A stretch of DNA of 64,000 nucleotides, from contig JAOZQY010000016.1 in assembly GCA_029931975.1 (NCBI GenBank), positions 348 to 64,347 of the forward strand, read 5' to 3'. Source of the stretch: Bacteroidales bacterium. GTDB taxonomy: Bacteria; Bacteroidota; Bacteroidia; Bacteroidales; GCA-2748055. Below the pieces are notes generated by a model that was not told the origin of the DNA, did no database searches, and worked only from the letters and a program-made list of their open reading frames with translations. Below are positions 15,388 to 61,383 of the stretch, in pieces (the first letter of the stretch is position 1; each line of letters starts with the position of its first letter). The position numbers and the translations under genes were made by a program.

Positions 15388-15560
15388 GATACTATTAAAT
15401 TAGATGTAATGCATTAAGGATGAGGGAGGTGACTGACCGTAGATAAGTGCCTGTTTTAGCATTTTTTTACCGTGGTTGCAATCAGTCAAATCTTTCCACA
15501 TCGACCCGACAAAGGAAGTAATTTTCATGCTTATGAGCAAGAAATGTACTGGCTTTAACT

Positions 15561-22075: not shown

Positions 22076-22451
22076 TCTCCTCTTTCTTTTCTTCTTTCTT
22101 GTTGTTTTCATCCAGCATAACATTTAGCTTAATCAACACATCATTGTAGACCTGATCAAGCAGTTCCGGATTTCGGGTGTAAACAATAATGGTAGTATCA
22201 AACTTCTGGCGGCTCACCTCGTATTTTTCCAGGATCGGTGAGAGTATATCGATGCTGTCCACTTCAAATTTTCTGTGAAATATCATGTCGTTGGTAACCC
22301 CGTCGGCCAGGTGAATATCCACCAGTATATCCACTAGCACATCACGTTTTATAAACGCCTTTCCATTGATACTCATTTCCTTATGACATGCGCTCAAGGC
22401 TAGTATCAGAAGGAGGATGAAGATCGTCGGAACAGGAAGTCGGATGGTCAT
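22029..22451 (-). CDS. DUF4296-like lipoprotein
   Basis: 140 aa. Lipobox LALSAC, DILVDIHLADGV as remembered from DUF4296, and a K/E-rich tail. Its start overlaps the upstream gene's stop (TAATG). Confidence 0.6.
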   Translation of the reverse strand: MTIRLPVPTIFILLLILALSACHKEMSINGKAFIKRDVLVDILVDIHLADGVTNDMIFHRKFEVDSIDILSPILEKYEVSRQKFDTTIIVYTRNPELLDQVYNDVLIKLNVMLDENNKKEEKKEETKTPESSLELRPGQG

Positions 22452-23347
22452 TATTTGATATCATTAAAACGATAACCTATCATGATCTCATGGGATCCGG
22501 TCTGGTACTTTCGGAGGGAGGAGATGCCAATGTCGTAGGAGTAACCAAAGAAGAGGGTTTCATCAAAGCTGTAACCCAGCAGGATCCCTATGGCCTCACT
22601 GTAACGATACGAAACAGCTGCCCACAACATCTTCTGCCATTCGACCCTGGCGGTCAGATCAAAACCCAGCTCTTTTGGAGCAGTACCCTTGATCATCAGG
22701 GAGGGCTCGACGAGCCAGTCCTCATTGATCCAGTAACGGTAAGCCCCGATCAGGTTAATATGACTTTTCAGGCGGTTCACCCCATCCTTATTGTCAAAGA
22801 TTTTTACACTGTTATTTAAAAGCTGGGCCACTGAAAGTCCCACATAGAACTCATCGGCATAGAGGTAAAGGCCAAGTCCGGCATCGGGCAGGTATGAAGT
22901 ACTGACTACCGAGAGAATGCTGGGATCGCTTACATCTGCGGGATTAAGTTGTGTTCCGTCGATGCGGTACTGCATGATGCTGGCAGACAAACCCATGGAA
23001 AGTCGTATATCGCCTGTAATTGCAATATTATAGGCGTAGCTTCCTGTGATTCCTGCCCTGCTGGTGGGTCCGGTAACATCGTTGTAGACATATCCCCCGT
23101 AACCCATATCAAGTTTGTTGTGCGGACCATAGAAGGCGATGGAATTTGTCATTGGAGGGTCCATGAGTCCCACCCACTGGAACCTGTGGTTGGTTCGGAT
23201 CTGATAGTAATCATAAACACCGGCAATGGCCGGGTTGATCACAAAATCATTGAACATGTACTGTGTATAGTGAGGCATCTGCTGCGCCTTTAATCCGGTC
23301 GAACATGCAATGATTGTGAACAATATGATGTATTTAACCCGTCTCAT
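22451..23347 (-). CDS. sprF: PorP/SprF family type IX secretion system membrane protein
   Basis: 298 aa. Signal peptide ending KAQQ, then the family N-terminal motif MPHYTQYMFNDFVINPAIAG. C-terminal TGSHEIMIGYRF. Starts 1 nt after the adhesin stop. Confidence 0.85.
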   Translation of the reverse strand: MRRVKYIILFTIIACSTGLKAQQMPHYTQYMFNDFVINPAIAGVYDYYQIRTNHRFQWVGLMDPPMTNSIAFYGPHNKLDMGYGGYVYNDVTGPTSRAGITGSYAYNIAITGDIRLSMGLSASIMQYRIDGTQLNPADVSDPSILSVVSTSYLPDAGLGLYLYADEFYVGLSVAQLLNNSVKIFDNKDGVNRLKSHINLIGAYRYWINEDWLVEPSLMIKGTAPKELGFDLTARVEWQKMLWAAVSYRYSEAIGILLGYSFDETLFFGYSYDIGISSLRKYQTGSHEIMIGYRFNDIK

Positions 23348-23348
23348 G

Positions 23349-26300
23349 CTACCTGATTATTGTTACGTTACCGGAAATAGGCTTGGCTCCCGGGTAGGGG
23401 ACAATAATATAATAGTATGTACCAAGAGGTGCCTCCTTTCCCCGCGCAGTACCATCCCACTCGTTTCCACTGCCATATCCCACAGTTGAAAAGATTAGAT
23501 CGCCCCATCTGGTGTACACTTCTACCAGCATTTCCGGATAACGTTCTACATTTCTAATTTCAAAATATTCGTTTATGCCATCTCCATTGGGTGAGAAAAC
23601 ATTGTAGGCTTTTAGATCCTCGATGAAGTCCACATAAACAGAATCCATCTCTTCGCAGCCATACTCATTGATGGCATACACATAGTACCTGGTTGATTCC
23701 GGGGGTGTGGCAATGGGGTCGGGTACGGTGGCATTATCAAGTCCCACTTCAGGTTCCCACCTGTAAATCTCAAAGGGTCCACCGTAGGCTTCTAGTTGAA
23801 CGGAAGCTCCGGCTAAAACAAAGGTGTCCTGGCTTGCTTCCAGTCCAACCGACGGGTATAAGTCCACTCGTACAGAATCGATGTTATAGCAATGATAAAT
23901 ACTGGCTGTTTCAGTAACTGTCAGCACAAAAGTGTTTGCTGAGGTCATCACTGATGTCTCCGGGTCAAATATGCTCTCATCTGAGAGGAAGGGCGATGGA
24001 TCCCAGGAGGGTGTTCCCGAGCCTGAGCCCTGCAACTGAACAGAACCTCCTGAGCAGACCGCAACATCATCTCCTGCATCAGCTACAACAGTTACCTCAC
24101 TGTTTACTGCAATATTTAAGGTCCTGGAACAGTTATTGTCATCTGTTACGACCACTGTGTAAACTCCAGAGAGGACGTTGGAACGGTCCTCTGTTGTGTC
24201 ACCGTCGGCCCAGAGATAGGAAAATGTACCCGAACCTCCCGATACGTTAATATCTATATAGCCCGTTGGGCTGAAAGCGTTGCATTCCGCACGGTTAACT
24301 GAATTATTAAAAACAATCTTAGCCGGTTCTGTGATATAGATTGCCCCGGTGAAGACTTTCCCGGAATCGTCCTGGGCCACCAAAAAATAGGTGCTATTGC
24401 CCCTGAGGTTTACAAAAAGCGGATCGGGCTGAAAGATGACTCCGCTATCGATGGAGTACAGGACAGCTCCTTCAGCATCCTGGGGAATAAATTCAATGGA
24501 TCCGTCGCCGGCTCCATAACAGCTTACATGAGAAACGTTGATCAGCACATCCAGTGGCGGTGTATCCAGGATCTCTACCGTTGTCTTAAAAAAACATCCG
24601 GCCACGTCCCTTACGATTACCTGATAGATACCAAGAGCCAGATCGGCATAAAAAGTTGTCGAAGTAAAAGGTCCGTCAGTACCGTTGATGGAGTATTCAT
24701 AGGGGGGCGTTCCGCCGCTTACATTTGAAATATTAATGGTCCCCAGGTTTCCGTAAACGGCATCTGTTTTTTCAACAGTGGCCATTATGGGGGCAGGTTC
24801 GGTAATTATTGTAGTGTCGGTTATGGAACAGGCATTCATATCCCGGATCCAGACAATATATTCCCCTGCGGCCAGGCCATTAAAGGTGCCGGTGTCTTGG
24901 TAGCTTGCATTGTCCAGGGAGAATTCAATACTGCCTGTTCCGCCGCTTGCAGTAACTTCAAGGCTTCCGTTTGTATCTCCGTTGCATCCGCTTACATCTG
25001 TGACAACGATATTGGTGATCGCCAGGGGTGGAGGAGCAAGAATCTCCACCATAGTATCAAGGGTACAGGTGTTGTCATCTATAAGAGTAAGAAGATGGGT
25101 TCCTCCAGGAAGATTCAGAAAATCTTCTGAAGCTTGCGGAGGAGCACCGTTAAGTGAATAGTTTATATTGCCGGTACCTCCTGTTCCGCTAATTGAAAGA
25201 CTTCCCTCTGCTGCATACGAACAGGAGGAGATATCTGTTTGGGTATAGGAAGCAATCTGAAGGAGCGGAGGTTCAACAAGCACATTCAGCATACCATTTT
25301 TAAGGCATCCGCTAGCATCTCTGACCACTGTCTGGTAAGTTCCGGGAGCCAGGCCGCTAAAAAAGTTGTTAGAATAGAAATCAGTTCCCGCGTTGATGGA
25401 ATATTCATAAGGTGCGAGTCCACCCGATACGCCGTTTATTGAAATCTCACCCTGCAGAGCTCCATGGCACAGGTAGCTGGCGATTTCTTCAGGGATCAGG
25501 ATCTCATCAGGTTCCAGGATGGTGATGGTGTCTGTAATCACGCAGGCATTTCCATCTCGGGTCCAAATGGTATAGAGTCCGGGGATAAGCGGTCCAAAGG
25601 TATCTCCTGCCTGATAGGTGGAACCATCGCTGGAATATTCATAGGATCCGGAACCTCCATTGGCAGTAACTGTAATGTTGCCGTTATCACCTTCGAAGCA
25701 GCCTATATCTGTTTTAGCCAGGTCAGCTTCCAGAAGCGGAGGTTCTGTAATGATGGCCAGATCGGCAAAGGTGAATACACAGCCATTGTCATCGGTGACA
25801 AGCAGAGAATAGGTTCCGGCCGGTAGTCCTGCTGGATCCTCCAGATCTGAAACAGTAGTTCCCGAACTATTGGTCCAGTCAAAGAGGTAGGGACCCTGCC
25901 CTCCACTTACATCAATCTCGATTGAACCACTGGAATCTCCATGGCACAGCACATCCACATGGAATACATAGCTGGCTGACACAGAAGAAGGTTCAATGAT
26001 GGTTTCCTGGTCGGGGAAGTTATATACACAATTGTTGCCATCGGTAATGGTCAGACTGTATGACCCGGCTTCAAGTTCGGTTAGATCCTCTGTTGTTGCA
26101 GTAAATCCCGAGGGTCCGGCCCATGCAAAAACGTAGGGAAGAGTTCCGCCATTCACTGTTATATCAATGGCTCCATCGCTGAGCCCCCCGCAGGAAATAT
26201 CAGTTTTCACAGCCGGGGCCAGAAGTTCGGCCGTTTCATTGATGGTGGCCATATCTGCAAAGTGTACCGGGCATCCGTTAAGGTCTGTGATGGTGACATT

Positions 26301-28553
26301 GTAGGTCCCTGCCTCCAGGTTTATGAGATCTTCTGTGTTTGCAGTGTATCCCGATGGTCCGGTCCATGCAAACCCATAAGGTGCTGTGCCCCCAACTACT
26401 GTCAGATCTACGGAACCATCTCCGGCTCCAAAACAGTCGATATCCACCTGGGTACTCGAAGCAGTAAGAAGCGGGGGAATATCAATTACCTGAGTATTCA
26501 TAAGCTGTGTACAGCCAAGGATATCGCTTACTTCCAGCACATAGGAGCCGGGTTCGAGTCCGGAGATATCCTCGGTGTTGGCTGTGAATCCGTTGGGTCC
26601 GCTCCATGAAAAGGAATAAGCACCGGCACCTCCCGAAATGCTTGCATCGATGACGCCATCGTTACTGGGGAAGGGTTCTCCGCAGCTCAGGTTAGTAGGA
26701 TCAAAGGAGGCTGTTATAATTGTATTTTCAGTAATAGTTACGAATCCAGGAAAATTACGAGTACATCCGAGGGCATCCGTAAGTGTCAGGCTGTAAGCTC
26801 CGGCTGCCAGTTCTGAAATATCTTCGCTTGTGGCAGTGAAGCCATCAGGACCCGACCAATCAAAGCTGTATGCAGGCGTACCTCCAAAGGGTGTGATGTC
26901 AATGGCCCCGTTTGTTTCTCCATTACAATTCACATGGGTTACCAGATCGATTGTCAGATCCAGCTGGGGGGGTTCACCAATGGTAACCAGGCTAAAGAAT
27001 CCAGAAGTACAAATATTGTTGTCAATGATCACCAGGTCATAGGTGTCAGGAGGCAGATTATCAGGATCCTCCACATTGGAAGTAAATCCCGTTACAACAC
27101 CGACCCATGAAAAGGCGTAAGGAGGAGTCCCGCCTGTGGCCGTTACCTGGACAGCACCGTTGCTGCCTCCAAAACAGGAGACGTCGCTCGATACATCCAC
27201 AGTGAGGTCTAAAACTTCAGGTTCGATGATGGTAAGCACATCGGAAAACATACGTGAACAGGAATGGTTATCCGCAAGGTTCAGGGTATACACATCGGCA
27301 GGCATTCCCGTTGGATCTTCTTCCGTGGAGGTGTAGCCCGATGTAGTTCCTATCCAGGAGAATGAATAATTAGGCATTCCCCCGGCGGCTGTAATCTGAG
27401 CCGAGCCATCAGTTCCGCCATTACAACTAACCGGATCGAAGGAATCAATGAGGATGCTCAGGGGGTCCGGTTCACTCATGGTTAGGAAAGAAGTAAAGGT
27501 TCTTGAACACCCGGAGCCATCTGTAATGCTCAGATCATATATGTCGGCCACCAGATTGGTGGGGTCCTCATCATTGGAAATCAGTCCATTGGTTTGACCG
27601 ATCCACGAATAGAAATATCCACCGGCACCTCCGTTTGTGCTAATGGATGCTGTTCCGTTGTTCTCCCCATGGCAAATGACCTCTGTACTGGCATCCAGGA
27701 ATGCATTGATCTGAGTGGGCTGACCTACGGTATAGGGTCCCATCATGGAAGAACAGCCGTTCCCGTCGGTGATGCTTACAAAGTAATCTCCGGCTTCCAG
27801 GGATGATATGTCTTCATCGATTGAGTTGAAGCCTGAAGGGCCGGACCACAAATAAGTATAGCCTGTACCCGAACCTGAGGGTGTTCCCCCGCCGGGTGTG
27901 ATGGCGATGGATCCTGAAAATTCCCCGAAACAGCCCGCATCAATGATAGCATCTACCGTGGCGGAAACAGGAGAAGGGTTATTAATGGTAATGCCGGGGG
28001 TAATATCGCTAGTAGTACAGACCGCATCCCGGGCAGTAACTGTATAGACTCCAGGGAGTAATCCGGTAAAGCTTCCCGAGGAATTACTTTCATTTTCCGG
28101 TCCCGCCAGATCGAACAGGTGGTTTTCTGTCTCCCCGCTGGCAGTAACAGTAATGGTTCCGTCATCGAAATTGTTACAGGTGAGGTCTGTGGCACCATAG
28201 TAGGTAATAAGGATTGGATCTGGACCATCCACAATAGCTGACATATATGAAACATCTTCCAGGCTGTCCTGAACAGCTATAAGATATAAGCTGTACTTCC
28301 TTCGCCCGACCGAGGTAACCGATGGTCCGGAGGTAACTCCAAAATCCACAGGCAGTCCGACCCCTTCATAAATAAACCAGCTGTACGGACCAACTCCTCC
28401 CGATATGTCGAAGGAGATGGTTCCCCCCGTTCCGTCTGAACAGGTGGTTGGGGTAGTGGTAACGTTGGAAATAGTAAGTACCTGAGCCGACAGGGCTATG
28501 AAGGATGTTGCAACAACAAGGACTAAAAATATACTATACCTGAATGCTTTCAT
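23349..28553 (-). CDS. SprB-repeat cell-surface adhesin with a T9SS type-B (gliding-motility-associated) C-terminal sorting domain
   Basis: 1734 aa with a signal peptide. About 18 modules of the C.G...G.I...V.GG..PY.Y.W...G....ED...L..G.Y...I.D..GC pattern. C-terminus is YNVFSPNGDGINEYFEI...GTYYYII...GNVTIIR. Confidence 0.88.
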   Translation of the reverse strand: MKAFRYSIFLVLVVATSFIALSAQVLTISNVTTTPTTCSDGTGGTISFDISGGVGPYSWFIYEGVGLPVDFGVTSGPSVTSVGRRKYSLYLIAVQDSLEDVSYMSAIVDGPDPILITYYGATDLTCNNFDDGTITVTASGETENHLFDLAGPENESNSSGSFTGLLPGVYTVTARDAVCTTSDITPGITINNPSPVSATVDAIIDAGCFGEFSGSIAITPGGGTPSGSGTGYTYLWSGPSGFNSIDEDISSLEAGDYFVSITDGNGCSSMMGPYTVGQPTQINAFLDASTEVICHGENNGTASISTNGGAGGYFYSWIGQTNGLISNDEDPTNLVADIYDLSITDGSGCSRTFTSFLTMSEPDPLSILIDSFDPVSCNGGTDGSAQITAAGGMPNYSFSWIGTTSGYTSTEEDPTGMPADVYTLNLADNHSCSRMFSDVLTIIEPEVLDLTVDVSSDVSCFGGSNGAVQVTATGGTPPYAFSWVGVVTGFTSNVEDPDNLPPDTYDLVIIDNNICTSGFFSLVTIGEPPQLDLTIDLVTHVNCNGETNGAIDITPFGGTPAYSFDWSGPDGFTATSEDISELAAGAYSLTLTDALGCTRNFPGFVTITENTIITASFDPTNLSCGEPFPSNDGVIDASISGGAGAYSFSWSGPNGFTANTEDISGLEPGSYVLEVSDILGCTQLMNTQVIDIPPLLTASSTQVDIDCFGAGDGSVDLTVVGGTAPYGFAWTGPSGYTANTEDLINLEAGTYNVTITDLNGCPVHFADMATINETAELLAPAVKTDISCGGLSDGAIDITVNGGTLPYVFAWAGPSGFTATTEDLTELEAGSYSLTITDGNNCVYNFPDQETIIEPSSVSASYVFHVDVLCHGDSSGSIEIDVSGGQGPYLFDWTNSSGTTVSDLEDPAGLPAGTYSLLVTDDNGCVFTFADLAIITEPPLLEADLAKTDIGCFEGDNGNITVTANGGSGSYEYSSDGSTYQAGDTFGPLIPGLYTIWTRDGNACVITDTITILEPDEILIPEEIASYLCHGALQGEISINGVSGGLAPYEYSINAGTDFYSNNFFSGLAPGTYQTVVRDASGCLKNGMLNVLVEPPLLQIASYTQTDISSCSYAAEGSLSISGTGGTGNINYSLNGAPPQASEDFLNLPGGTHLLTLIDDNTCTLDTMVEILAPPPLAITNIVVTDVSGCNGDTNGSLEVTASGGTGSIEFSLDNASYQDTGTFNGLAAGEYIVWIRDMNACSITDTTIITEPAPIMATVEKTDAVYGNLGTINISNVSGGTPPYEYSINGTDGPFTSTTFYADLALGIYQVIVRDVAGCFFKTTVEILDTPPLDVLINVSHVSCYGAGDGSIEFIPQDAEGAVLYSIDSGVIFQPDPLFVNLRGNSTYFLVAQDDSGKVFTGAIYITEPAKIVFNNSVNRAECNAFSPTGYIDINVSGGSGTFSYLWADGDTTEDRSNVLSGVYTVVVTDDNNCSRTLNIAVNSEVTVVADAGDDVAVCSGGSVQLQGSGSGTPSWDPSPFLSDESIFDPETSVMTSANTFVLTVTETASIYHCYNIDSVRVDLYPSVGLEASQDTFVLAGASVQLEAYGGPFEIYRWEPEVGLDNATVPDPIATPPESTRYYVYAINEYGCEEMDSVYVDFIEDLKAYNVFSPNGDGINEYFEIRNVERYPEMLVEVYTRWGDLIFSTVGYGSGNEWDGTARGKEAPLGTYYYIIVPYPGAKPISGNVTIIR
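24129..28442 (-). repeat. about 18 tandem SprB-type repeat modules (about 70-90 aa each) within the adhesin gene
   Basis: Counted by eye from the recurring Cys...GG.(P)Y.(F/Y).W...GC pattern between aa 38 and 1475. Confidence 0.75.
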
Positions 28554-33100: not shown

Positions 33101-35491
33101 TCAGAGGGTAAATCGGGCCGTGAACACAAAGTTGCGTCCTGCTGCACTTATACCTGAAGCGTAAGATTTGTAAAACTGGTCGAACAGGTTTTCAATGGCC
33201 AGCACAAGATCAAAATGATCCCCTGCCTCAACGCCCACCTTAATATTGGCGGTCCACCACGAAGGAAATCCATATTCCATGGCTTCTTTATCATTATCCT
33301 CTCCATAGGGAGAGAAATCCTCTATATGTTTCCATCCCTGGTAGACAAAATAGGTATCCAGGAAAAACCGGCTCTTCCGATAGCTGAGTAATGTCCGGCC
33401 AAAGATGGGGGGAATATGTCCCAGCGGCACATCATCGCTCAGGTTTTGGCCCTTTGTGTAGTTAATGGTCCCTTTCAGGATGAAGTTTTCATTCAGGTTG
33501 GAGGTAATGCCCATGGAGGCACCATATATATAAGCTTCTCCTGCATTGTAGTTGGCTGTAATCTTATACAGATCCCCATCGTAGTAGAGAGAGTCTTCTC
33601 CATTCAGCTGATAATCGGTTCTTACAATGGCATCGTCCAGGTAGCTAACAAAACCCACCAGTTTTATCTTCATATATCCCTCAATAAACCTGCTGATTCC
33701 AATTTCCGCATTATAAGTATACTCGGGCGATATATTGGGATTGGGAACGATCACATAATCATCCTTGGCCCTTACCTTGCCATAATCATCCACATTGGGG
33801 CTCCTGAATCCCGAGGAGAGAATGGCGTTCAGCTGCCATTGATTGGAAGGAGTATAAACCAGTCCGGCACTTCCGGTAAGGGCTCCGTTGTTCATGCTGA
33901 TCTCATCATAAGGAAGCAGGGAATTGGAAAATAAAGAATACAAATGTCCCTGCATATACCTCGAGCCCAGGTTCAGAACCAGTTTATCATTCAGTAGCCA
34001 TTTATAACTGATGTAAGCTGAGGTACTCCAGGTCAAACTTCCTCCATCCGGGTAGCGGGTAAGAGCCTCCTGGAGTTCACCCGTTTTGACATTTTTATAC
34101 CAGGCATCTGAATCAAGCAGGTTGCTGTTTAGTTCTGCTCCATAGTAGAGTTTGTGCCGGGCTCCCCAGACCTTTAGCAGGTCGAAATTCAGACTGAATA
34201 CCATAACATCTTCCTGCTGGGTAAGTAGCTCGTCATTCCTGAACTTACGTGAATATCGATCCTCATCAATTTTCTGAAATGCTGCCAGAGTGGTCATATT
34301 GGTAAAAACAGGGTTGTCTTTTTTCAGGACGTTTTTCAGTGATACCAGGAACCTGTTCTGCGGACCATAGAAATATTCAGCATATTTGAGATCAGTACCG
34401 CTGTAGTCATTTAATTTATCAATCCGGTCGATATCCGAGGAAGTGGAATATTGCAAATTCAGAATCCAGTCCACATATTTGGAGGGAATATACCTGATTT
34501 TCTGAAGGATGTCGAGCTGACTGTAGCCGGTCTTTAGCTGTATAAGGGGGTTCCCATTGAGTATGGTAGAATCCACACCGTTTACCTGGTCCACAGAATG
34601 CATCTGCTTTCCCCAATCGCCCAGGGTGGGATTTCTCCTGCTTCCGATTCGGATATTGCCCAGGTTCTTGTAGGTAATGCTTGAAAGAGAGGCCCAGCGT
34701 TTTCTTCCGGCTGAAAAATCAAGATGACCCGTAAGGCCGTTCATGGCTGAAGCATATTGTGTATAGGCATGCGTATTAAAGTTGGTAGTGCTGTCGGTTC
34801 CCATCCGGGGATCTCTTGTATAGTAATGGACCACGCCCCCCAGTGCATCACTTCCGTACATGATGGAAGAGGGCCCGAAAATAACCTCGGTTCGTTCAAG
34901 AATGGAGTGATCAATGGTGATGGAATTCTGGAGGTGTCCGCTGCGGTAGATAGCATTATTTAACCTTACCCCGTCTACCACCAGTAGAATTTTATTGGCC
35001 TCAAAGCCCCGAAGAATAGGACTTCCTCCGCCTCCCTGGGTTCTCTGAACCATTATATTCCCGGTCTCTTCCAGGATATCAGCCGCGCTGAATCCGGTAG
35101 ATTCCATAAGCATCTCGTCCTTCAATACATTCACCAAATAGGGGATCATCAGACTGCTTTCCCTCGATTTGGATGCAGAAATAACATACTCATCTATCAG
35201 GACCCTTTTTCTTTGGAGTTCAAGCTCTTTCTGTCCGGCAATCTCCGCCTTAGTGCATCTCCTGCTAATAAATGAGGGATGCTGAAAGAATAATGTATCG
35301 CTATCGGGGAAAATGGCCATGTCAATTATACCCAGGGAATCGCTTAAGGTGTATTTTCCCCGGGTACTATTATATACTGCAACATTTTCAACGGGGGAGC
35401 GGTCGGAGGTGTTTATAAGCTGTAATTGTTGTCCATTTGCCAGGGAAGCAAAAACTAAGGCGTTAACTATAAAGAGATTACGATATGTCAT
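33101..35491 (-). CDS. TonB-dependent outer-membrane receptor
   Basis: About 796 aa from the ATG at 35491 (the track start at 35506 is a GTG). Signal peptide, an N-terminal extension, a plug region ([20 protein letters not shown]...[10 protein letters not shown]), and a terminal aromatic (FTARFTL). No adjacent SusD-like gene. Confidence 0.85.
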
Positions 35492-35578
35492 AAAAGAAAA
35501 AAACACGCAATAATATTACAAAAACTATACCACTCTTTCATGTTGGTAATTTTTCCACAATCCTGTGTTTGAAATTCA

Positions 35579-35586
35579 TATTTTTG
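35579..35586 (+). promoter_or_regulatory. putative -7 promoter box (TATTTTTG) for the three-gene cluster
   Basis: TAnnTTTG match 18 nt upstream of the ATG at 35604. Confidence 0.35.
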
Positions 35587-35603: not shown

Positions 35604-38363
35604 ATGGTGAAACGCATTATATACGGGGGGCTCTTTGCGGTCATATGCCTGGGATTGCTGGTGGTAATTCTACTCAAACGCTTCGATGAAATAGAACCAA
35701 TTGAGGTCCTGAGAGCTATTCCTGAAGATGCTATTCTGTTTGCCGAAGATATCGATTACCAGTACCTGACAGAATCTTTTTTGTCGGAAAGCAGAATCTG
35801 GATCGACTTTGTGAATATTATTGAAAGAAGTGATCTGGATTCTACACTGGATGCCGTTTTTGGACAGATCCGTTCTTCGGAATTCCTGAACGACCTGCTC
35901 CTTAAAGAGGGCTTGAACCTTTCATTACACAAGCTTGGTAAAGATCGGCTGACACCTCTTTTTTACATAGACTATTCGGATGCGCACAGCGACCATGATT
36001 TTGACCATCTCATGAAGGAGCTCCTTGAGAAGAAAGCTATAGTGAATGAGAGGAAGTATGAGACTGTACTATTGAATGATGTTTCGGGGGGACCTGGATT
36101 TGTGCCGGGGAAGTTTTCCTATGCCTGCCTGGATGGACTTTGCCTGATCAGTCCGTCTTCCATGCTTGTGGAAGCAGCCATCAGAACCATTCATTCCGAT
36201 ACAAATCTTCCTTCCAGGCGAGGACTCCAAAAGGTGAGGGAAACCGCGGGCCGCTATGTTCATGCGAATCTCTATATCAATTATAAGGAACTACCAGGGC
36301 TTCTTTATCCCATCATCGATGAGTCGAAGTGGGGAAAGCTCGGCATTTTATCAGATCTGGCTTCCTGGGGCGAACTGGACATGGATGTGAAACAGGAAGC
36401 TCTGATCCTTAATGGAATGACATATGTGGAGTCGAATCTCCCTTTGCTCCTTGGGGCCTTCAGGGATCAGTCGCCGGTCAGGATGGAGTTGCAGGAGATA
36501 TTGCCTTCAGGGACCAGTTATTTTTTACATCTGGGTATTGGAGACAGGAAAAAGTTTAAGGAACAGGCGATTAGTTATCTGAATGGATTGGGAAAGGGGC
36601 CTGCGATTGAAGCTGAAATGCAGAGGCTCGATCAGCTCTATGGAATTGATCCCCTGGAGGATCTCTCCCGGGTCCTGGCAGATGAAATGGCCTGGTTTGC
36701 CATTGAAGGAGTGACAGAGAAGCCGGAAGATGAGTTTCTGGTCATCGAGACCCGAAGTCGCAGTGAAACTGTTGAAGTCGTTATGCGCTGGGTAGAGCAG
36801 TATCTCCAGCTACACGCTTTTGATATGCGCTCTCTGAGGCATGTGTATCAGCTTGACAAGCAGACCCTTTTTAATATTTACAAACTCCCCGATCAGTTTT
36901 TTAAAGGAACCTCTGCCGCTCGTCTTTTTAACCAGTACTTTACAGTTTATGAAAATTACCTGATCTTTGGACCTTCAGTGGATGCGCTGTCGCGTGTAAT
37001 CTACCAGAATGTACTTCATAAAACCTTTGTCAGCGATCCCGTTTACAAAGAGATTTCAGATTACCTTTCTAATCGCAGTACTATAACACTGTTTTTCCGA
37101 CCCGGTGCTTATATGGACTATAGGAAAGAAATGTTGACCGAAAAGATGAGAGGTTGTCTCGATCAGGTGGAACTGTTTTTGCGGCGGATTCCCGGGCTTG
37201 TGGTACAGTATAGTACCGAAGGCGATCTTTTCTATCATAGCATCAGTTGTAAGTATTTACCCCAGATAAAAGACAAAGCGCTGACTGTTTGGGAGAGCCT
37301 GATGGATACCTCTGTGGTGATCAAACCGGCACTGGTTGTCAATCATAATACATCAGAGAAGGAGATTTTCATTCAGGATCTCGCCAATAAGGTCTATTTA
37401 ATTAATGGTGCCGGGAGGGTACTCTGGAAGCAAGCCGTTGAGGGACCTATACTGGGAAGTGTTCATCAGGTGGATTTCTACAGGAACGGAAAACTACAAT
37501 ACCTCTTTAATACGGCCACTAAGATGCATTTAATTGACCGGAACGGGAATTATGTGGAGCGTTACCCTGTTTCATTCAGGTCCGATGCAACCAATCCCCT
37601 TGCACTTTTTGACTATGATAAGGGCCGTGATTACCGACTGTTTGTGGCCACAGAAGACAGGAGGATCTATGTGTATGATATTGAGGGAAATATGATTACA
37701 GGGTGGAAGTTTGGGAAAACCGAATCAAGGGTGACCGGGGAGATTCAGCACTTTAGAATCAATGAAAAGGATTATATTGTTGCCATTGATCAGAACAGGG
37801 CCTATATTCTTGATCGAAGAGGCAGGGAGCGGATCAAACTGAAAGAGAAACTGGTGTTGTCGCCTCAGAATCCGCTTAGTCTGGATATGAATATCAGGGA
37901 AGAGAAACCCAGGTTGATCTCTACCGATACTTCGGGAAGTGTGTTTGCCATATATATGGATGGATCTGTTTCCAGGCTATTGTCCAGGGAGGCCTCACCT
38001 GATCATTTTTTCCAGATGAAAGATTTGAACAGGGATGGAATCCCCGAGTTTATTTTTGCAGAGGGGGATGAGCTGGAGGTGCTTCATCAGGATGGCAAGA
38101 AAATGTTTACATATAAGGTGAAGGGCCGCATTGGTGAAATGCCCGATTTCTATAAATTTTCGTCTTCAGATATAAAAATCGGAATTACCGACAGGTCCAG
38201 GAGCAGAATATACCTGATCAATTCGGATGGCTCTCTTTATGAAGGGTTTCCTCTGGAGGGTTCCACCAGGTTCAGTATAGGGTATTTTGCCGGTTCCGAC
38301 AGCCGGTTCAATCTGATTGTGGGAAGTGGGAATAACTTCCTTTATAATTATTCAATTGAGTAG
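35604..38363 (+). CDS. hypothetical membrane-anchored protein with a beta-propeller-like C-terminal region
   Basis: 919 aa. Single N-terminal TM segment (GGLFAVICLGLLVVILL). The last 330 aa or so show repeated beta-rich segments (VYLINGAGRVLW, MHLIDRNGNYV, IYVYDIEGNMITGW, AYILDRRGRE, IYLINSDGSLYEGFP) and an FG-GAP/VCBS-like loop (DLNRDGIPEFIF). No family name recognised. Confidence 0.65.
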   Translation: MVKRIIYGGLFAVICLGLLVVILLKRFDEIEPIEVLRAIPEDAILFAEDIDYQYLTESFLSESRIWIDFVNIIERSDLDSTLDAVFGQIRSSEFLNDLLLKEGLNLSLHKLGKDRLTPLFYIDYSDAHSDHDFDHLMKELLEKKAIVNERKYETVLLNDVSGGPGFVPGKFSYACLDGLCLISPSSMLVEAAIRTIHSDTNLPSRRGLQKVRETAGRYVHANLYINYKELPGLLYPIIDESKWGKLGILSDLASWGELDMDVKQEALILNGMTYVESNLPLLLGAFRDQSPVRMELQEILPSGTSYFLHLGIGDRKKFKEQAISYLNGLGKGPAIEAEMQRLDQLYGIDPLEDLSRVLADEMAWFAIEGVTEKPEDEFLVIETRSRSETVEVVMRWVEQYLQLHAFDMRSLRHVYQLDKQTLFNIYKLPDQFFKGTSAARLFNQYFTVYENYLIFGPSVDALSRVIYQNVLHKTFVSDPVYKEISDYLSNRSTITLFFRPGAYMDYRKEMLTEKMRGCLDQVELFLRRIPGLVVQYSTEGDLFYHSISCKYLPQIKDKALTVWESLMDTSVVIKPALVVNHNTSEKEIFIQDLANKVYLINGAGRVLWKQAVEGPILGSVHQVDFYRNGKLQYLFNTATKMHLIDRNGNYVERYPVSFRSDATNPLALFDYDKGRDYRLFVATEDRRIYVYDIEGNMITGWKFGKTESRVTGEIQHFRINEKDYIVAIDQNRAYILDRRGRERIKLKEKLVLSPQNPLSLDMNIREEKPRLISTDTSGSVFAIYMDGSVSRLLSREASPDHFFQMKDLNRDGIPEFIFAEGDELEVLHQDGKKMFTYKVKGRIGEMPDFYKFSSSDIKIGITDRSRSRIYLINSDGSLYEGFPLEGSTRFSIGYFAGSDSRFNLIVGSGNNFLYNYSIE

Positions 38364-38365
38364 TC

Positions 38366-40000
38366 ATGAGGAAAATCTTAAAAAATAGCGTGAAATTCTT
38401 AATGGCTGGAGGCCTCCTTCTGACTTCCTGTCACAAAGAGTATTTTCAACTGGATAGATTGTCCGATGAGATGGAAATCAGTCCGGATGTTGTGGCACCA
38501 TTGGTGCACGGTTCCATGTCGATGGGTGATATAGTAGCCCGGTTTGATTCAACAGGTTATGTGGGTGAATTTGATGATGGTCTGATTTACCTGACCTATG
38601 CAGATACCCTGGTTGATGTGATGGTTGATACAGTTGATCTGTTGATTGACGAATTCTACCAAGAGGTGTATTTTGATCTGGAAATAGGCGATAATCCCAT
38701 TTATATCAGTAGTAATATTGGCGATACCCTGCACTTCAGAAAAAGCAAGTTTTACGGCTTCTCGGTGGATGGGGACACTCGTATAGACAGCATTATCTTC
38801 AAGGAGGGGGAAGTGATGACCGAGATACAAAGCACTTTTCTTCATGGAGGGATTTTAACCATAAGCTCCGATTACCTGAGGAATGAAAACAGGAATTCCT
38901 ATTCCAACACCATAACGATCAGTGAATCGGATGGAAGCTTCTCATGGACCGATCATCTCGACCTGGATGGCTATTACCTGGCAACGGATAAGAGTGGCGA
39001 TTCCGTCGTATTCAGGATGGATTATGACCTGGCCCTGATCAACTCCGGGAGTCCAATTAACCCGGGAGACCACTGCGAAATTAACTCCAACTTCCTGGAT
39101 CTGGGTTTTTACAGTATATACGGAGTAATTGATCCTGGTCAAATTGTTTCTGAGAGTGGTGTGTTGGATATTCCGATCTATGCGGATGTCCCGGAACTTT
39201 CTCATTTGAAACTTGCCGATCCCAGGATCAATATCTTTACAGAAAACTCACTGGGGCTTCCCTTTGAGCTGGAGCTTGATAGTGTCATTGCTACTGCTGT
39301 AGATGGTACCACTGCCACACTGGTACTTAATGAGCATCCTTTTAAAATTCCGGCACCAGATATTGCTCATGTGGGAGAGACAGCTTATGGCGAGATTAAT
39401 ATCAATAACCAGACCTCTAATTTCCAGGAGCTCTTAAATATTGCTCCCAGCACACTGTCCTATAGAGTAGAAGGGGGCCTTGACCAGGAGTACCTGGATC
39501 ACTTTATACTTGACACCAGCAGGTTTATGGTGGAAGCTGAATTTATGTTGCCATTGGATCTGAGCTTTTCTGAATATGCCCTGATGGATACACTTGAGTT
39601 TGAATTGGGTGAGGAAGGGATAGATACTGCGATTATTAAAGATGTGGTAATTTCTGTTTCCACCATCAATGAGCTGCCCATGGAGCTGGGTTTGCAGGTT
39701 TACATGCTGGATGAATCTTTTGTGGTGCTTGATTCTGTGTTTGATGATGATGCGGTTTTTCTGCCATCCTCGGAGGTGGACTCGGAAGGCAAACTACTTA
39801 GCGCCAGCGAAAACAACAATAGCATCAACTTTCATACGGAGAGATTGGGGAGCCTTGAAGAGGTTCGCTTCCTCAAGATAGAGGCCACTCTGCTCACTTC
39901 AGGATCCGGAAACCAGTTTGTTAAATTCTACTCCGATTATTCACTGGATTTTGAGATTTCTGTTTATGCCAATTTCAGAATTAATACAAGAGAACTATGA
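38366..40000 (+). CDS. hypothetical lipoprotein
   Basis: 544 aa with lipobox GGLLLTSC. Starts 2 nt after the upstream stop (TAGtcATG). No family recognised. Confidence 0.65.
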   Translation: MRKILKNSVKFLMAGGLLLTSCHKEYFQLDRLSDEMEISPDVVAPLVHGSMSMGDIVARFDSTGYVGEFDDGLIYLTYADTLVDVMVDTVDLLIDEFYQEVYFDLEIGDNPIYISSNIGDTLHFRKSKFYGFSVDGDTRIDSIIFKEGEVMTEIQSTFLHGGILTISSDYLRNENRNSYSNTITISESDGSFSWTDHLDLDGYYLATDKSGDSVVFRMDYDLALINSGSPINPGDHCEINSNFLDLGFYSIYGVIDPGQIVSESGVLDIPIYADVPELSHLKLADPRINIFTENSLGLPFELELDSVIATAVDGTTATLVLNEHPFKIPAPDIAHVGETAYGEININNQTSNFQELLNIAPSTLSYRVEGGLDQEYLDHFILDTSRFMVEAEFMLPLDLSFSEYALMDTLEFELGEEGIDTAIIKDVVISVSTINELPMELGLQVYMLDESFVVLDSVFDDDAVFLPSSEVDSEGKLLSASENNNSINFHTERLGSLEEVRFLKIEATLLTSGSGNQFVKFYSDYSLDFEISVYANFRINTREL

Positions 40001-41451
40001 GGATGAAACGTAGCATTATTATTGGCTTGGGATTAATCCTGGGGGCCCTCTTGCAACTCAGGGCCCAGCCCAGCAATTCTCTATACTTTATGCATGGGGT
40101 ACCACAGTTTAACAGGGTAAATCCTGCGCGGCAGCCGGCATGCGGCTTCTATATTGGAATGCCCCTGTTATCTCCTTTGAGCACTGAGCTGTCATCAAGT
40201 TCCCTTGCCTGGGAGGACTTGGTCTATCCGCATCCCACGGAAGATTCTTTGATCACCTTTTTGCATCCAGAGGGCGATAAGCAGGCTTTTTTGAATCAGC
40301 TTAAACCATTAAACTACGTCGTTTCTGATCTGGGGACTTCCCTTTTTTCTCTGGGTTTTCGAACCGGAGCAGGATTCTTTACCCTGGATGTCACCTCCAG
40401 AGTAGAGGGGAGTCTTTATTATCCGGGCGATCTGGCCCGGCTTGTACTGGAGGGTGCAGATGAAGGAGAAACTTATATCTTGAATGGTATGGGGACTGAT
40501 CTTTCAGCATTTGATGAAATCGCTCTTGGCTGGTCAGGAGCCATCGGAGATAAGTTGCAGATAGGGGTACGTGGAAAATTTCTCTTTGGTCTTGGAAATG
40601 TGTACACTTCAAACTCTCAGCTGGAGGTAACAACTTCCGAGGATGTCTGGAATATTGAATCGGACATGGAGTTTGATGTTTCTCTTCCTTTTGCTGAGGT
40701 GGTTTATGATGCAGATGGGATAATTGAGGATGTTATTGTAGATGACGATATTACGAATTTGAATCCCATGGCCATGGCCAGGCTTGCTTTCAACAAAAAT
40801 AATTTTGGCCTGGGTCTCGATCTGGGTATAGACTATAAGCCCTCAGAGAGCTGGCACCTGAGCGCCAGTGTTCTGGATATTGGTTATATCAGATGGACCG
40901 ATGAGGTACATGAGGTAAGCTATAATGCAGTATATGATTATACCAGTCTTGAGGTAAATCCCTTTGATTTTCTGGGCGAAACAGGGGAGAGTAATTACTT
41001 CGACAGCACCTTTTCCGAACTGTCCGATACCTTATCCGGGGCGCTTGAATTTACCCAGGGGGAGATTTACAATAGTCGGCTTCATACGAAGCTGTTTGTG
41101 GGTACTTCCTGGTATGTAACGCCGAAAATTAATTTTGGACTCCTTTCCAGGACAGACTTCCTGAGAGACAAGGTGGTTGAACAGCTAACAGCATCAGCTA
41201 ACTTTGCAGCAGGGCGCTTTCTTAACTTTACCCTGAGTTACTCATACATTAACAGTTACCTTAAGAATATGGGAACCGGGATCTCTTTCAATGCCGGGCC
41301 CCTGAATCTCTATTTGATCTCAGATAACACCCTGAACCTTATATTCTGGCCACAGGAAGCACAATCGGCAAATCTCTGGTTCGGGATGAACCTGATTTTT
41401 GGTTATAAGCAATTTAACAAGGTTGATAAAGACAGACCTCTGGTATATTAA
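39997..41451 (+). CDS. hypothetical outer-membrane beta-barrel-type protein with a PorP/SprF-like N-terminal motif
   Basis: 484 aa. Signal peptide ending LRAQ, then PSNSLYFMHGVPQFNRVNPA. Alternating beta-strand pattern and a C-terminal FGMNLIFGYKQF segment. ATGA overlap with the upstream gene. Confidence 0.65.
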   Translation: MRMKRSIIIGLGLILGALLQLRAQPSNSLYFMHGVPQFNRVNPARQPACGFYIGMPLLSPLSTELSSSSLAWEDLVYPHPTEDSLITFLHPEGDKQAFLNQLKPLNYVVSDLGTSLFSLGFRTGAGFFTLDVTSRVEGSLYYPGDLARLVLEGADEGETYILNGMGTDLSAFDEIALGWSGAIGDKLQIGVRGKFLFGLGNVYTSNSQLEVTTSEDVWNIESDMEFDVSLPFAEVVYDADGIIEDVIVDDDITNLNPMAMARLAFNKNNFGLGLDLGIDYKPSESWHLSASVLDIGYIRWTDEVHEVSYNAVYDYTSLEVNPFDFLGETGESNYFDSTFSELSDTLSGALEFTQGEIYNSRLHTKLFVGTSWYVTPKINFGLLSRTDFLRDKVVEQLTASANFAAGRFLNFTLSYSYINSYLKNMGTGISFNAGPLNLYLISDNTLNLIFWPQEAQSANLWFGMNLIFGYKQFNKVDKDRPLVY

Positions 41452-41464
41452 TACTTTTTGAGGA

Positions 41465-42214
41465 TCAGGCTTTTCGGATCTGCTTGGCCATATTGGTGGC
41501 AAAAACAAAATTATTCAGCGCTTCATTATCTGTCTGCAGAACCTCCTTACGGGTTCCCTCCCAGCACTTACAGCCCCTGTAGATAAAGATTACCTTATCG
41601 CCGATTTCAAGTACAGAATTCATATCGTGCGAATTTATAATGGTGGTCATCTGGAATTCTTCGGTAATTTCTTTGATCAGGTTATCTATAACGATACCGG
41701 TTTCAGGATCCAATCCGGAGTTGGGCTCATCACAGAGCAAGTATTGTGGATTAAGGGCAATGGCGCGGGCAATGGCCACCCGCTTCTTCATTCCTCCACT
41801 CAATTCGCCCGGGTACAGTTTGTTAGAACCGCTTACACGAACCCTTTCCAGGCAGAAATTGGCGCGATCCAGTTTCTCACTGGTGCCTTTCTCGGTAAAA
41901 AAGTCAAGAGGAAAGAGGACATTCTCTTCTACCGTAAGTGAATCGAACAGTGCTGCTCCCTGAAAAAGAACCCCCATCTTCTGGCGAAGCGCTTGTCTGG
42001 CACGGGCATTCATGTTGCTGAAATTCTGATCATTATACCATATCTCTCCATCATCTGTTTCGATCAGTCCGGCAATGGATTTCAGAAGGACGGTTTTTCC
42101 GGAACCACTTCGCCCGATAATCAGGTTGCATTTTCCTGGTTCAAATCTGGCGCTTACATCGTTTAAAACAAATTCGCCATCGAAGCTTTTAAAAAGATTT
42201 TTTACCTCGATCAT
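41465..42214 (-). CDS. ABC transporter ATP-binding protein (MlaF-like)
   Basis: 249 aa. GRSGSGKTV Walker A, LSGGMKKRVAIARA, LLCDEPNSGLDP. ATGA overlap with the MlaE-like permease gene. Confidence 0.85.
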   Translation of the reverse strand: MIEVKNLFKSFDGEFVLNDVSARFEPGKCNLIIGRSGSGKTVLLKSIAGLIETDDGEIWYNDQNFSNMNARARQALRQKMGVLFQGAALFDSLTVEENVLFPLDFFTEKGTSEKLDRANFCLERVRVSGSNKLYPGELSGGMKKRVAIARAIALNPQYLLCDEPNSGLDPETGIVIDNLIKEITEEFQMTTIINSHDMNSVLEIGDKVIFIYRGCKCWEGTRKEVLQTDNEALNNFVFATNMAKQIRKA

Positions 42215-42951
42215 TGGAGAATGGTTCTGGTTAGAATCAGGTTGGCAAGCAGGATCAGAATACTGCTCTGCACCACGGCTCTGGTACTGGACTTTCCTAC
42301 CTCGACTGCTCCTCCTTTTACATTGTAGCCATAATAGGAAGAGACAGTGGTAATGATAATGGCATAGAATACAGTTTTTGTCATGGCGTACCAGATGTAG
42401 TAAGGGTAGAAAGCATACTGGATTCCATATATGTAGTCACCGGGAGGCATCACATTGGCCAGTATACATGCGAGATAACCCCCGGCCAGTCCAACCATGA
42501 TACTAAGCAGGCAGAGAATGGGAAAGAACAGCACTGCGGCAATAATCCTGGGAAGAATCAGATAAGAGGCGGAATTGATTCCCATCACATCCAGGGCATC
42601 AATTTGTTCGGTTATTCGCATCATCCCAAGTTCTGAAGCAATGCTCGACCCCACTTTACCGGCGAGTATTAGTGCCACCATGGTGGAGGAAAACTCCAGG
42701 AGCAATGAATCCCGGACCGTGACACCCACCAGGTACTTGGGAAGAAGGGGATTTTCAATGTTGAAGTTGGTTTGTATGGTAATAACCGCTCCAACAAATA
42801 GTGAGATAAGCACTACAATTGGAAAGGAGTTAATTCCCACCTTCTCTATCTCCCGCATTGTTTGACGGTAAAGGATGGCGTGTTTTTCAGGCTGACTGAA
42901 AGTCCTCTTCATCAACAAAAAGTAGGATCCTATATGTATAAGGAGTTTCAT
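42211..42951 (-). CDS. MlaE family ABC transporter permease
   Basis: 246 aa, polytopic. ITEQIDALDVMGINS is the MlaE/Ttg2B hallmark as I remember it. Confidence 0.8.
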   Translation of the reverse strand: MKLLIHIGSYFLLMKRTFSQPEKHAILYRQTMREIEKVGINSFPIVVLISLFVGAVITIQTNFNIENPLLPKYLVGVTVRDSLLLEFSSTMVALILAGKVGSSIASELGMMRITEQIDALDVMGINSASYLILPRIIAAVLFFPILCLLSIMVGLAGGYLACILANVMPPGDYIYGIQYAFYPYYIWYAMTKTVFYAIIITTVSSYYGYNVKGGAVEVGKSSTRAVVQSSILILLANLILTRTILQ

Positions 42952-60560: not shown

Positions 60561-61370
60561 ATGGAGAGTAAAAAGGTATTATTTGTTTCTCAGGAGATTA
60601 CACCTTATTTGCCAGAGACGGAACTTTCCTTAATCAGCAGAAAACTTCCCCAGGCCATACAGGAAACCGGCAAGGAGATCCGGACTTTTATGCCAAAATA
60701 CGGAAACATCAATGAGCGTAGGAACCAACTACACGAGGTTATACGACTTTCGGGAATGAACCTGATCATTGATGACACCGATCATCCTTTGATTATAAAA
60801 GTTGCCTCCATTCAGGCCGCAAGGATGCAGGTGTATTTCATTGATAATGAGGAATATTTTCAAAGGAAACAGACGGTGGTTGATTCAAAGGGTGAGCACT
60901 TTAAGGACAATGATGAGCGGATGATTTTTTTCGCTCGTGGTGTGCTGGAGACTGTTCGGAAACTGCGCTGGTCACCCGATCTGGTACACTGCCATGGATG
61001 GTTTACCTCCCTGGTACCCCTGTATATTAAGAATGCTTACCGTGAGGATCCACTCTTTGCAGATTCAAAAGTGATCTTCTCATTTTATGATAACGGTTTT
61101 GATGGTTCCCTGGACCCTTCTTTCTCAAAGAAGATACTTGTGGATGGTGTTTCTGATGAACATATATCCATGCTTAAGGATTCGGGGTATGAAAATCTGG
61201 CCAGCCTGGCAGCCACCTATTCGGATGGGCTGATCCAGGGAAGTGAATCCCTGCCTGCTAAAGTTGACGAAGTACTGAAAAATTCCGGGAAACCCTACTT
61301 GAATTATGCTAGTGAAGAGAAATATGTGGAGGAGTTTTCCGTTTTCTATGACAGTATCATCAACGCTTAA
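60561..61370 (+). CDS. short glycogen/starch-synthase-like protein (N-terminal GT5 domain only)
   Basis: 269 aa. Starts VLFVSQEITPY and contains LVHCHGW, as in the N-terminal half of GlgA. A clean TAA stop follows and there is no C-terminal GT1 half. Confidence 0.7.
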   Translation: MESKKVLFVSQEITPYLPETELSLISRKLPQAIQETGKEIRTFMPKYGNINERRNQLHEVIRLSGMNLIIDDTDHPLIIKVASIQAARMQVYFIDNEEYFQRKQTVVDSKGEHFKDNDERMIFFARGVLETVRKLRWSPDLVHCHGWFTSLVPLYIKNAYREDPLFADSKVIFSFYDNGFDGSLDPSFSKKILVDGVSDEHISMLKDSGYENLASLAATYSDGLIQGSESLPAKVDEVLKNSGKPYLNYASEEKYVEEFSVFYDSIINA

Positions 61371-61383
61371 GATTATTTTTTTT

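Follow-up and report, generated by a model that had tools for sequence, protein, structure and literature searches.

The DNA analysed here is a window of 64,000 nucleotides from contig JAOZQY010000016.1 of a Bacteroidales bacterium (assembly GCA_029931975.1). The subject of this study is a group of three genes in this window, here called g1, g2 and g3, which the original prediction had singled out as a translationally coupled envelope cluster. The list of open reading frames (ORFs) bears out three genes on the same strand, coding for 919, 544 and 484 amino acids (Table 1), and the junctions between them read in the window sequence as had been described. At the g1-g2 boundary the sequence gagTAGtcATGagg (TAGtcATG) leaves a gap of 2 nt, while at the g2-g3 boundary ctATGAgg holds an ATGA overlap (-4 nt). 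The TAA stop codon of g3 occupies 41449-41451, and 13 nt separate it from the stop, at 41465, of a convergent gene for an ABC-ATPase. A Bacteroidetes-type -7 promoter box, TATTTTTG (TAnnTTTG), precedes g1, again as predicted. In the public annotation of the contig, g2 is a 532-amino acid protein started from an internal Met (38402 instead of 38366). That homologues keep the longer g2 N-terminus speaks for the start at 38366 (ATG) and for the 2-nt junction. A g1 of 100% identity with the same genes around it is carried by the 66.8-kb scaffold_308 of an ENA metagenome assembly (DOMB18-1, SAMN06288063), to which the window corresponds.

Related loci were collected by scanning one genome per GTDB species with two g1 motifs. 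The scan yielded 417 stretches encoding a g1 relative; locus comparisons refer to the best 80 of these (the L-numbered loci), all from Bacteroidales or Bacteroidota metagenome-assembled genomes (MAGs), with g1 identities to the window protein going from 80% down to 33%. ORFs were called in all loci and then matched to the window genes, the flanks being 10 kb; presence counts take in only loci whose contig reaches far enough. In this set the trio stays clustered and is not scattered: g3 follows g1/g2 in 72 of 72 loci and g2 is present in 77 of 78, with order and strand identical in all loci, down to 33% g1 identity. The g1-g2 gap measures 2-3 nt in near-clade loci and, for most of the distant ones, 18-32 nt, and the g2-g3 gap -4 to 36 nt in most loci; six loci fall outside the usual ranges, through assembly frameshifts, a disrupted g2 or longer spacers. 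Throughout, g1 is 917-925 amino acids long, and 23 homologues of 64-84% identity align without a gap; with further homologues counted, gap-free alignment spans 64-92% identity. In 63 of 71 loci a TAnnTTTG box precedes g1 by 23-40 nt, as compared to 2.9% of random 70-nt windows. Because order, strand, short junctions, g1 length and promoter box are all conserved, g1-g2-g3 is a real operon under strong constraint, and the single tight unit originally proposed persists over deep divergence.

Within the operon, g2 changes fastest across loci, g3 is intermediate and g1 evolves roughly as fast as the TonB-dependent receptor and GldM. In seven loci of one subclade (L022, 12764-13426; L025, L027, L028, L030, L031 and L038) g2 is reduced to about 221 amino acids, residues 23-84 and 405-544 being kept and residues 85-404, which comprise two middle domains, deleted. 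In L026 (12760-12820) g2 is absent and g3 starts 30-60 nt past the g1 stop. As g2 is shortened or lost in some loci, g1 and g3 represent the invariant core. In L001/L042, L007, L056 and L059, g1, gldM, trpS and other genes are fragmented, in a manner that looks like assembly frameshifts and not like pseudogenes. Several MAG contigs with split genes stem from MFD assemblies, which we presume to be long-read. The contig of L073 is labelled Thiohalospira sp., a gammaproteobacterium, yet its locus is of the Bacteroidales type (TonB-dependent receptor, g1, g2, g3, FadL), probably as the result of a binning error.

Upstream from the -7 box, about 50-60 nt from the g1 ATG (window ~35544-35556), lies a TTGGTAA(T/G)TT(T)CC block that is kept down to approximately 42% g1 identity. 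This block may represent a -33 element or, alternatively, a regulator site in common with the divergently oriented receptor gene. A scan for sigma-70 promoters and terminators gave counts at shuffle level and was uninformative; an Rfam scan found no RNA element in or beside the cluster.

Table 1. Positions of genes, domains and signals (window coordinates unless a locus is named)
Feature	Position	Strand	Remarks
g1	35604..38363	+	919 amino acids; predicted inner-membrane-anchored periplasmic protein: transmembrane helix, DUF3352, 8-bladed propeller
g2	38366..40000	+	544 amino acids; lipoprotein, tandem beta-sandwich domains
g3	39997..41451	+	484 amino acids; DUF5723 protein, predicted outer-membrane beta-barrel
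Bacteroidetes-type -7 promoter box	35579..35586	+	18 nt before g1 ATG
g1 N-terminal signal-anchor helix, residues ~5-27	35616..35684	+	hydropathy and model
g1 alpha/beta N-domain, residues ~40-550	35721..37253	+	divergent DUF3352; PF11832 and model
g1 C-terminal 8-bladed beta-propeller, residues ~579-918	37338..38357	+	Foldseek and model; most conserved part
g2 conserved N-terminal core, residues 23-84	38432..38617	+	in ~221-amino acid variants; aligns to 4H3W N-terminus
g2 conserved C-terminal beta-sandwich, residues 405-544	39578..39997	+	in short variants; profile resembles 4H3W residues 216-271
g3 conserved segment after signal peptide, residues 24-60	40066..40176	+	contains N42-P43-A44; orthologue alignment
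g3 C-terminal tail past last strand, residues 471-484	41407..41448	+	D479-x-P481-L; D479 and P481 invariant
TonB-dependent receptor gene	33101..35506	-	plug and barrel domains; divergent to g1; membership of system uncertain
FadL/Toluene_X-like gene	L061 16436-18073; L068 16225-17823; L071 16312-17967; L073 16065-17552; L079 16178-17902	strand of g3	

The g1 protein is predicted to be anchored in the inner membrane and to lie in the periplasm, without a cytoplasmic domain. As originally proposed, it has one N-terminal transmembrane helix: hydropathy finds a single strongly hydrophobic segment (mean Kyte-Doolittle value of 2.85 over 19 residues), which the AlphaFold2 (AF2) model shapes into a helix of residues 2-27 (mean predicted local distance difference test score, pLDDT, of 82). 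About 4 residues stand ahead of the helix and no small-residue cleavage site behind it; the hydrophobic stretch of 20 residues continues into KRFDE, and there is no lipobox Cys. The alpha/beta domain that follows is a divergent relative of DUF3352. PF11832 scores 17.4-19.4 bits on window g1, under its gathering cut-off of 26.8 bits (also that of PF18990, below), and matches 14 of 22 orthologous N-domains with a best E value of 1.5e-22; the L072 orthologue reaches 44.6 bits over profile positions 121-501 of 536. In the model, pLDDT is mostly 80-95 in this domain and low in the linker to the propeller. A profile search of the PDB returned no relative of the N-domain.

The C-terminal part of g1, initially described as propeller-like, is an 8-bladed beta-propeller both in the AF2 model and by Foldseek. 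Designed 8-bladed propellers are matched with template-modelling (TM) scores of 0.68-0.73, BamB 4imm with 0.60 and YxaL with 0.58; for the BamB structures 4imm, 7tt2_B, 6lyq_B and 9mgf_B the probability is 1.0 and the TM score 0.54-0.61. The propeller is the slowest-evolving part of g1, with 47-51% identity at depth versus 26-28% for the N-domain. It contains an integrin-like or Ca-loop-like DLNRDGIPE sequence (38022-38048) in which D807, D811, G812 and E815 are invariant. This is the DLNRDGIPEF loop pointed out as FG-GAP/VCBS-like by the original prediction; the match of FG-GAP_3 to residues 807-844 is sub-threshold.

The lipobox that had been noticed in g2 reads LLTSC, and its Cys22 does not vary among 102 close and 37 distant homologues. 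Two or more of the six residues that follow the lipid Cys are acidic in 58 of 78 g2 orthologues (74%) and 114 of 139 distant representatives (82%); such a count is the criterion for surface lipoproteins in a study of the Bacteroidota beta-barrel assembly machinery (BAM) (PMC12578637). The AF2 model (pLDDT 77) is all-beta, with tandem sandwich domains. Pfam and NCBIfam scans gave no family for window g2. An exhaustive g2 profile search collected 3,246 clusters (50% identity) at E<=1e-3 and 602 at E<=1e-30, and the members among the best 150 listed are mostly 530-570 amino acids long. These numbers place g2 in a large unnamed family. Searching a word-indexed database with a profile of distant g2 relatives retrieved near-clade sequences only. 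The top Foldseek match of the g2 model is 4H3W/BDI_1231 (E 4.7e-7, probability 1.0, but TM scores of 0.19/0.28 and a root-mean-square deviation of 12 Å, the model being multi-domain); carbohydrate-binding module (CBM) and jelly-roll proteins come after it. The g2 family profile reaches a single PDB sequence, again 4H3W, with a marginal E value of 0.015, and PF15414 (DUF4621) matches 3 of 37 distant g2 relatives weakly (best E 3e-4). Taken together, g2 is remotely DUF4621-like. We also weighed a reading of g2 as a type V pilin and gave it up, since the 50 Foldseek matches listed include neither a FimA nor a Mfa-type structure.

The third protein, g3, matches PF18990 (DUF5723) with an E value of 1.2e-87 (295.5 bits), residues 43-443 covering profile positions 1-376 of 376; the same profile matches 22 of 22 g3 orthologues. 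This adds a presumed barrel family to features already read from the sequence and all seen again: a signal peptide (residues 1-23, ending in LQLRA ahead of QPSN), beta-strand periodicity and an aromatic C-terminal segment. Crude periodicity gives about 14-18 amphipathic beta segments, the final strand being LWFGMNLIFGY. The mature N-terminus is conserved (Q24, Y30, M32, P36, Q37, N42-P43-A44), and Q24, P36, Q37, N42, P43, G54 and P56 are invariant in this segment. At the motif level only, it resembles the NPA-containing N-termini of the window PorP and SprF-like proteins and of the FadL-like neighbour found in other loci (YNPAG). In FadL, the NPA motif is located in the hatch. Judged from its residues (Q…NPA), the N-terminal segment of g3 looks hatch-like, and the C-terminal tail might, hypothetically, act as a docking peptide. 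Comparison by hhalign gave no sign of kinship between g3 and the FadL-like neighbour (4.1% probability), PorP (4.5%), g2 or the TonB-dependent receptor, and PF03349 (Toluene_X) finds no match among 22 g3 orthologues at E<=5. In the literature, DUF5723 is limited to a protein modelled as a 16-stranded barrel in Brachyspira (10.1101/2025.01.03.631275) and a protein detected in outer-membrane vesicles of P. gingivalis (PMC12937337).

The statement that none of the three proteins belongs to a named family holds in part. It fails for g3, a DUF5723 protein, and partly for g1, with its DUF3352 and propeller domains; it stands in that no family involved has a characterised function. PDB searches with all three proteins, singly and as family profiles, gave only the marginal g2-4H3W match. 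NCBIfam provided no usable match for the trio, with none for g2 or g3 and one sub-threshold match for g1, which rules out the families of the system for type IX secretion (T9SS), BamB and BamP that it models. Thus, the profile and structure searches uncovered no characterised family or solved structure that would explain function. Our literature survey found no functional study for DUF5723, DUF3352, DUF4621, 4H3W or BDI_1231, and no account of this operon or of a matching trans-envelope propeller system in Bacteroidota. The trio is a real cell-envelope module made only from uncharacterised families and conserved in many uncultured Bacteroidales. The predicted locations of its products span the envelope, as the original prediction had it, with a membrane-anchored periplasmic protein, a lipoprotein and an outer-membrane barrel.

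The surrounding window region is core chromosome (SecDF, MetK, an aminoacyl-tRNA synthetase, RpoN, TrpRS, TopA, PBP1). The TonB-dependent receptor gene reported beside the cluster is indeed there, divergent to g1 and separated from it by 97 bp in the window and by 97-300 bp in the loci. The receptor is generic by NCBIfam and PDB and has no SusD-like partner. Past g3 come MlaF-like and MlaE genes, an NTP-transferase gene and then gldN, which begins 2.85 kb downstream and is followed by gldM, gldL, gldK and porP, in accord with the distance of about 2.9 kb first given. The MlaF-like ATPase and MlaE permease pair (41465-42951, minus strand) converges on g3 and has no adjoining MlaD/Mce gene. On the other side of the cluster, a gene for a SprB-like protein of 1,734 amino acids with a type B T9SS sorting domain (23349-28553, minus strand) is followed by a PorP/SprF-like gene (22451-23347, minus strand); the two are a typical adhesin plus anchor pair. 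Elsewhere in the window, a SAM-II (long-loop) riboswitch (15446-15505, minus strand; 71.5 bits versus a cut-off of 44) lies directly upstream of metK (14128-15387, minus strand), and a DUF4270 protein, of an uncharacterised Bacteroidota family, is encoded near the window end (61306-62751, plus strand).

Comparison of the loci indicates how much of this setting belongs to the operon. The block running from the SprB-like gene through TrpRS, UDG, the receptor, g1-g2-g3, MlaFE and the NTP-transferase gene to gldNMLK represents synteny common to one part of the tree, and gld genes are adjacent to the cluster in 46 loci. In one deep clade (L061, L063, L068, L071, L073, L079 and others) the receptor and g1-g2-g3 are kept and no mla or gld gene lies within the 10-kb flanks; here the receptor has 38-40% identity, and g3 is followed on the same strand by a gene for a FadL/Toluene_X-like outer-membrane protein and then by unrelated genes. 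Another deep clade (including L060, L069, L072, L075 and L078) keeps MlaFE and gld and lacks the receptor upstream, except for L067; in L072, FabH and a short-chain dehydrogenase/reductase (SDR) are found upstream. Across clades, only g1-g2-g3 is constant.

We tentatively favour, at somewhat less than an even chance, an arrangement in which g3 and g2 make up a barrel-lipoprotein pair, approached from the periplasm by the g1 propeller, and the three form a passive conduit or receptor chain whose cargo is probably hydrophobic or amphipathic. In such an arrangement, g3 would be an outer-membrane beta-barrel with a conserved, hatch-like N-terminal segment. Most likely, g2 would partner g3 in the outer membrane and would probably be exposed at the surface, as are other lipoproteins that Bacteroidota pair with a barrel there. 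Anchored in the inner membrane through its single N-terminal helix, g1 would project its DUF3352 domain and propeller into the periplasm, where the propeller would dock onto the periplasmic face or the C-terminal tail of g3. The cargo, a lipid-like envelope component or a nutrient, would travel between the outer membrane and the periplasmic face of the inner membrane. The operon has no ATPase, motor or cytoplasmic domain and is for this reason read as a passive conduit or receptor chain; we read the module neither as a secretion motor nor as a part of the T9SS. We infer the contacts of g3 with g2 and with g1, the surface exposure of g2, the nature and direction of the cargo and, beyond these, a physical trans-envelope complex of the trio. 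Speaking for a surface-exposed g2 are its rate of change, the fastest of the three, and the acidic residues after the Cys in most family members. Hints at a hydrophobic cargo are weak but consistent: the NPA N-terminus of g3 and the lipid-related neighbours present in different lineages (MlaFE, the FadL/Toluene_X-like protein, FabH with the SDR).

A number of observations weigh against this arrangement. Every protein contact in it is one that we infer. The six residues after the Cys of window g2 are HKEYFQ, with one acidic residue, so that surface exposure is likely for the family and not certain here. In L026 g2 is lost, which speaks against an obligatory lipoprotein partner. For the DUF3352 domain the PDB profile search gave no relative, and Foldseek with the whole g1 model returned propellers only. 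Likeness to FadL is not borne out by hhalign, which gives g3 a probability of 4-5% against either the FadL-like neighbour or PorP, nor by Toluene_X, which does not match g3. As for the lipid-related neighbours, they vary from lineage to lineage or are convergent, which makes guilt by association weak. Finally, the most persistent neighbour is the divergent TonB-dependent receptor, which may point to a TonB-linked role.

The latter role would make the trio accessory to the receptor in a nutrient locus, with g2 capturing the ligand, g3 and/or the receptor passing it and g1 receiving it in the periplasm. The receptor is divergently adjacent in the near clade and, at 38-40% identity, in a deep clade where all other surroundings have changed; moreover, the model of g2 is similar to CBM and jelly-roll binding domains, and the N-terminus of the g2 family looks like a lipoprotein export signal. 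However, five loci of the other deep clade (L060, L069, L072, L075, L078) retain g1-g2-g3 with no receptor upstream, the receptor is of a generic kind lacking a SusD-like partner, and a g1 of near-invariant length and high conservation is unusual for a substrate-specific uptake locus. We regard this explanation as unlikely. Also unlikely, and slightly more so, is that the operon serves outer-membrane biogenesis, with g1, held at the inner membrane, acting as a propeller of a BamB-like or chaperone-like kind that aids the assembly or stability of outer-membrane proteins or lipoproteins, and with g2 and g3 as its partners or dedicated clients. The structural similarity of the propeller to BamB (4imm, 7tt2_B, 6lyq_B; TM scores of 0.54-0.61) and the core-chromosome, housekeeping context (SecDF, PBP1, TopA) are consistent with such a role. 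Yet BamB and PQQ_2 models stay below threshold (PQQ_2 scores 13.4 bits versus a gathering cut-off of 27.6 bits, and the NCBIfam BamB models give no match at E<=1), and g1 is not a lipoprotein. Furthermore, the likeness to BamB is no better than to any 8-bladed propeller, designed proteins scoring best, and NCBIfam, which includes at least one Bacteroidota BAM model, BamP, has no family for g2 or g3 and but one sub-threshold match for g1.

According to the original prediction, the trio might be an accessory to the T9SS or to gliding, which would link it to the porP-gldKLMN genes close by. In its favour are the short distance to gldN, the SprB-like protein with its C-terminal domain (CTD) of type B and the SprF-like gene upstream, a neighbourhood kept in 46 loci, and the resemblance of the g3 N-terminus to those of PorP and SprF. 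On the other side, the curated T9SS models of NCBIfam produced a single match in g1-g3, that of T9SSA_dep_M6i to the g1 propeller, at 33 bits versus a cut-off of 600. TIGR04183 and TIGR04131, which represent type A and type B CTDs, do not match g1-g3, and both match the neighbouring SprB-like protein; NCBIfam scores the window PorP at 228 bits, and the libraries also recognise GldK-N and the SprB-like neighbour. The MlaFE and NTP-transferase genes separate the cluster from the gld operon, which is in convergent orientation, one deep clade keeps g1-g2-g3 with no gld gene within 10 kb, and hhalign of g3 with PorP stops at 4.5%. Proximity to gld is thus shared synteny, lost in part of the tree; a T9SS link for which proximity is the argument is not supported, and we consider an accessory of this kind improbable. 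The view that the three genes are mere neighbours with unrelated functions might appeal to the contacts being proposed ones and to the dispensability of g2 in one lineage. It is very hard to reconcile with order, strand and tight junctions kept from 80% to 33% g1 identity while the flanking genes change, and we give it hardly any credence.

The arrangement that we favour can be set beside known envelope systems. Complexes of a barrel with a surface lipoprotein, including that of the FadL homologue BamG with BamH, have been described as a hallmark of Bacteroidota (PMC12578637). The operon has in common with SusC/SusD-type and BamG-BamH pairs the adjacent, translationally coupled lipoprotein and barrel genes, the acidic residues (at least two in most of the g2 family) after the Cys, and a lipoprotein that evolves faster than its barrel. 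It differs in that g2 and g3 come from other, uncharacterised families, g3 has no plug, TonB box or Toluene_X match, conservation is highest in a third member, the propeller protein tethered to the inner membrane, and g2 can be truncated or lost. With FadL/Toluene_X barrels (FadL, PorV, BamG) g3 shares a middling size and a conserved NPA segment directly after the signal peptide, and a true Toluene_X-like gene follows it in one clade; in contrast, PF03349 does not match g3, hhalign remains at about 4%, and the DUF5723 member was modelled with 16, not 14, strands. Similarly, PorP/SprF resemble g3 as outer-membrane barrels with a Q-rich, NPA-containing mature N-terminus, and the region is rich in T9SS/gliding genes; however, neither TIGR03519 nor PF11751 matches g3, which is about 170 residues longer (hhalign, 4.5%), and a type B CTD partner is missing from the operon.

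For g1, the resemblance to BamB consists of the 8-bladed propeller fold (TM score of about 0.55-0.61), from which the protein departs by its transmembrane anchor in place of a lipid, its DUF3352 domain of about 510 residues and its scores below the BamB/PQQ thresholds. As to DUF4621/BDI_1231 from Parabacteroides distasonis (PDB 4H3W), the parts that align coincide exactly with those that the short g2 variants retain, but g2 exceeds it by about 220 residues and has two additional beta-sandwich domains, the TM scores are low (0.19/0.28) and PF15414 does not match window g2. The general layout, an inner-membrane-anchored periplasmic component with an outer-membrane lipoprotein and a barrel, recalls the Mla, Tol-Pal and Lpt systems, and a MlaFE pair without MlaD adjoins; the trio has no homology to any of their components and the operon encodes no energy-coupling subunit, mlaFE being convergent. 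In the sequence tests that define BamB, FadL, PorP/SprF and T9SS components, the trio failed throughout. By analogy, the module reads as most like the phylum-typical barrel plus surface-lipoprotein complexes, and its inner-membrane-tethered propeller partner would be what is new.

The BAM, T9SS and Sus-like machines of Bacteroidota repeatedly use barrel plus surface-lipoprotein pairs that are absent from model proteobacteria, and the movement of lipids and lipoproteins to and across the outer membrane of the phylum is still largely open. A bolder version of our proposal holds that the trio is an undescribed envelope-spanning machine of Bacteroidales, built wholly from uncharacterised families, whose propeller docks on the g3 C-terminal tail and which moves a lipid-like molecule or lipoproteins between the membranes and the surface. 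We think this doubtful; if true, such a lipid or lipoprotein route would be one not yet identified in the phylum. Were the operon only a specialised uptake locus, the value would be modest, amounting to annotation of DUF families. In any event, it is a deeply conserved, co-inherited trio that gives a functional context to DUF5723, DUF3352 and a DUF4621-like family, and the combination of a barrel, a lipoprotein and an inner-membrane-tethered propeller constitutes a concrete hypothesis, testable by genetics and pull-downs.

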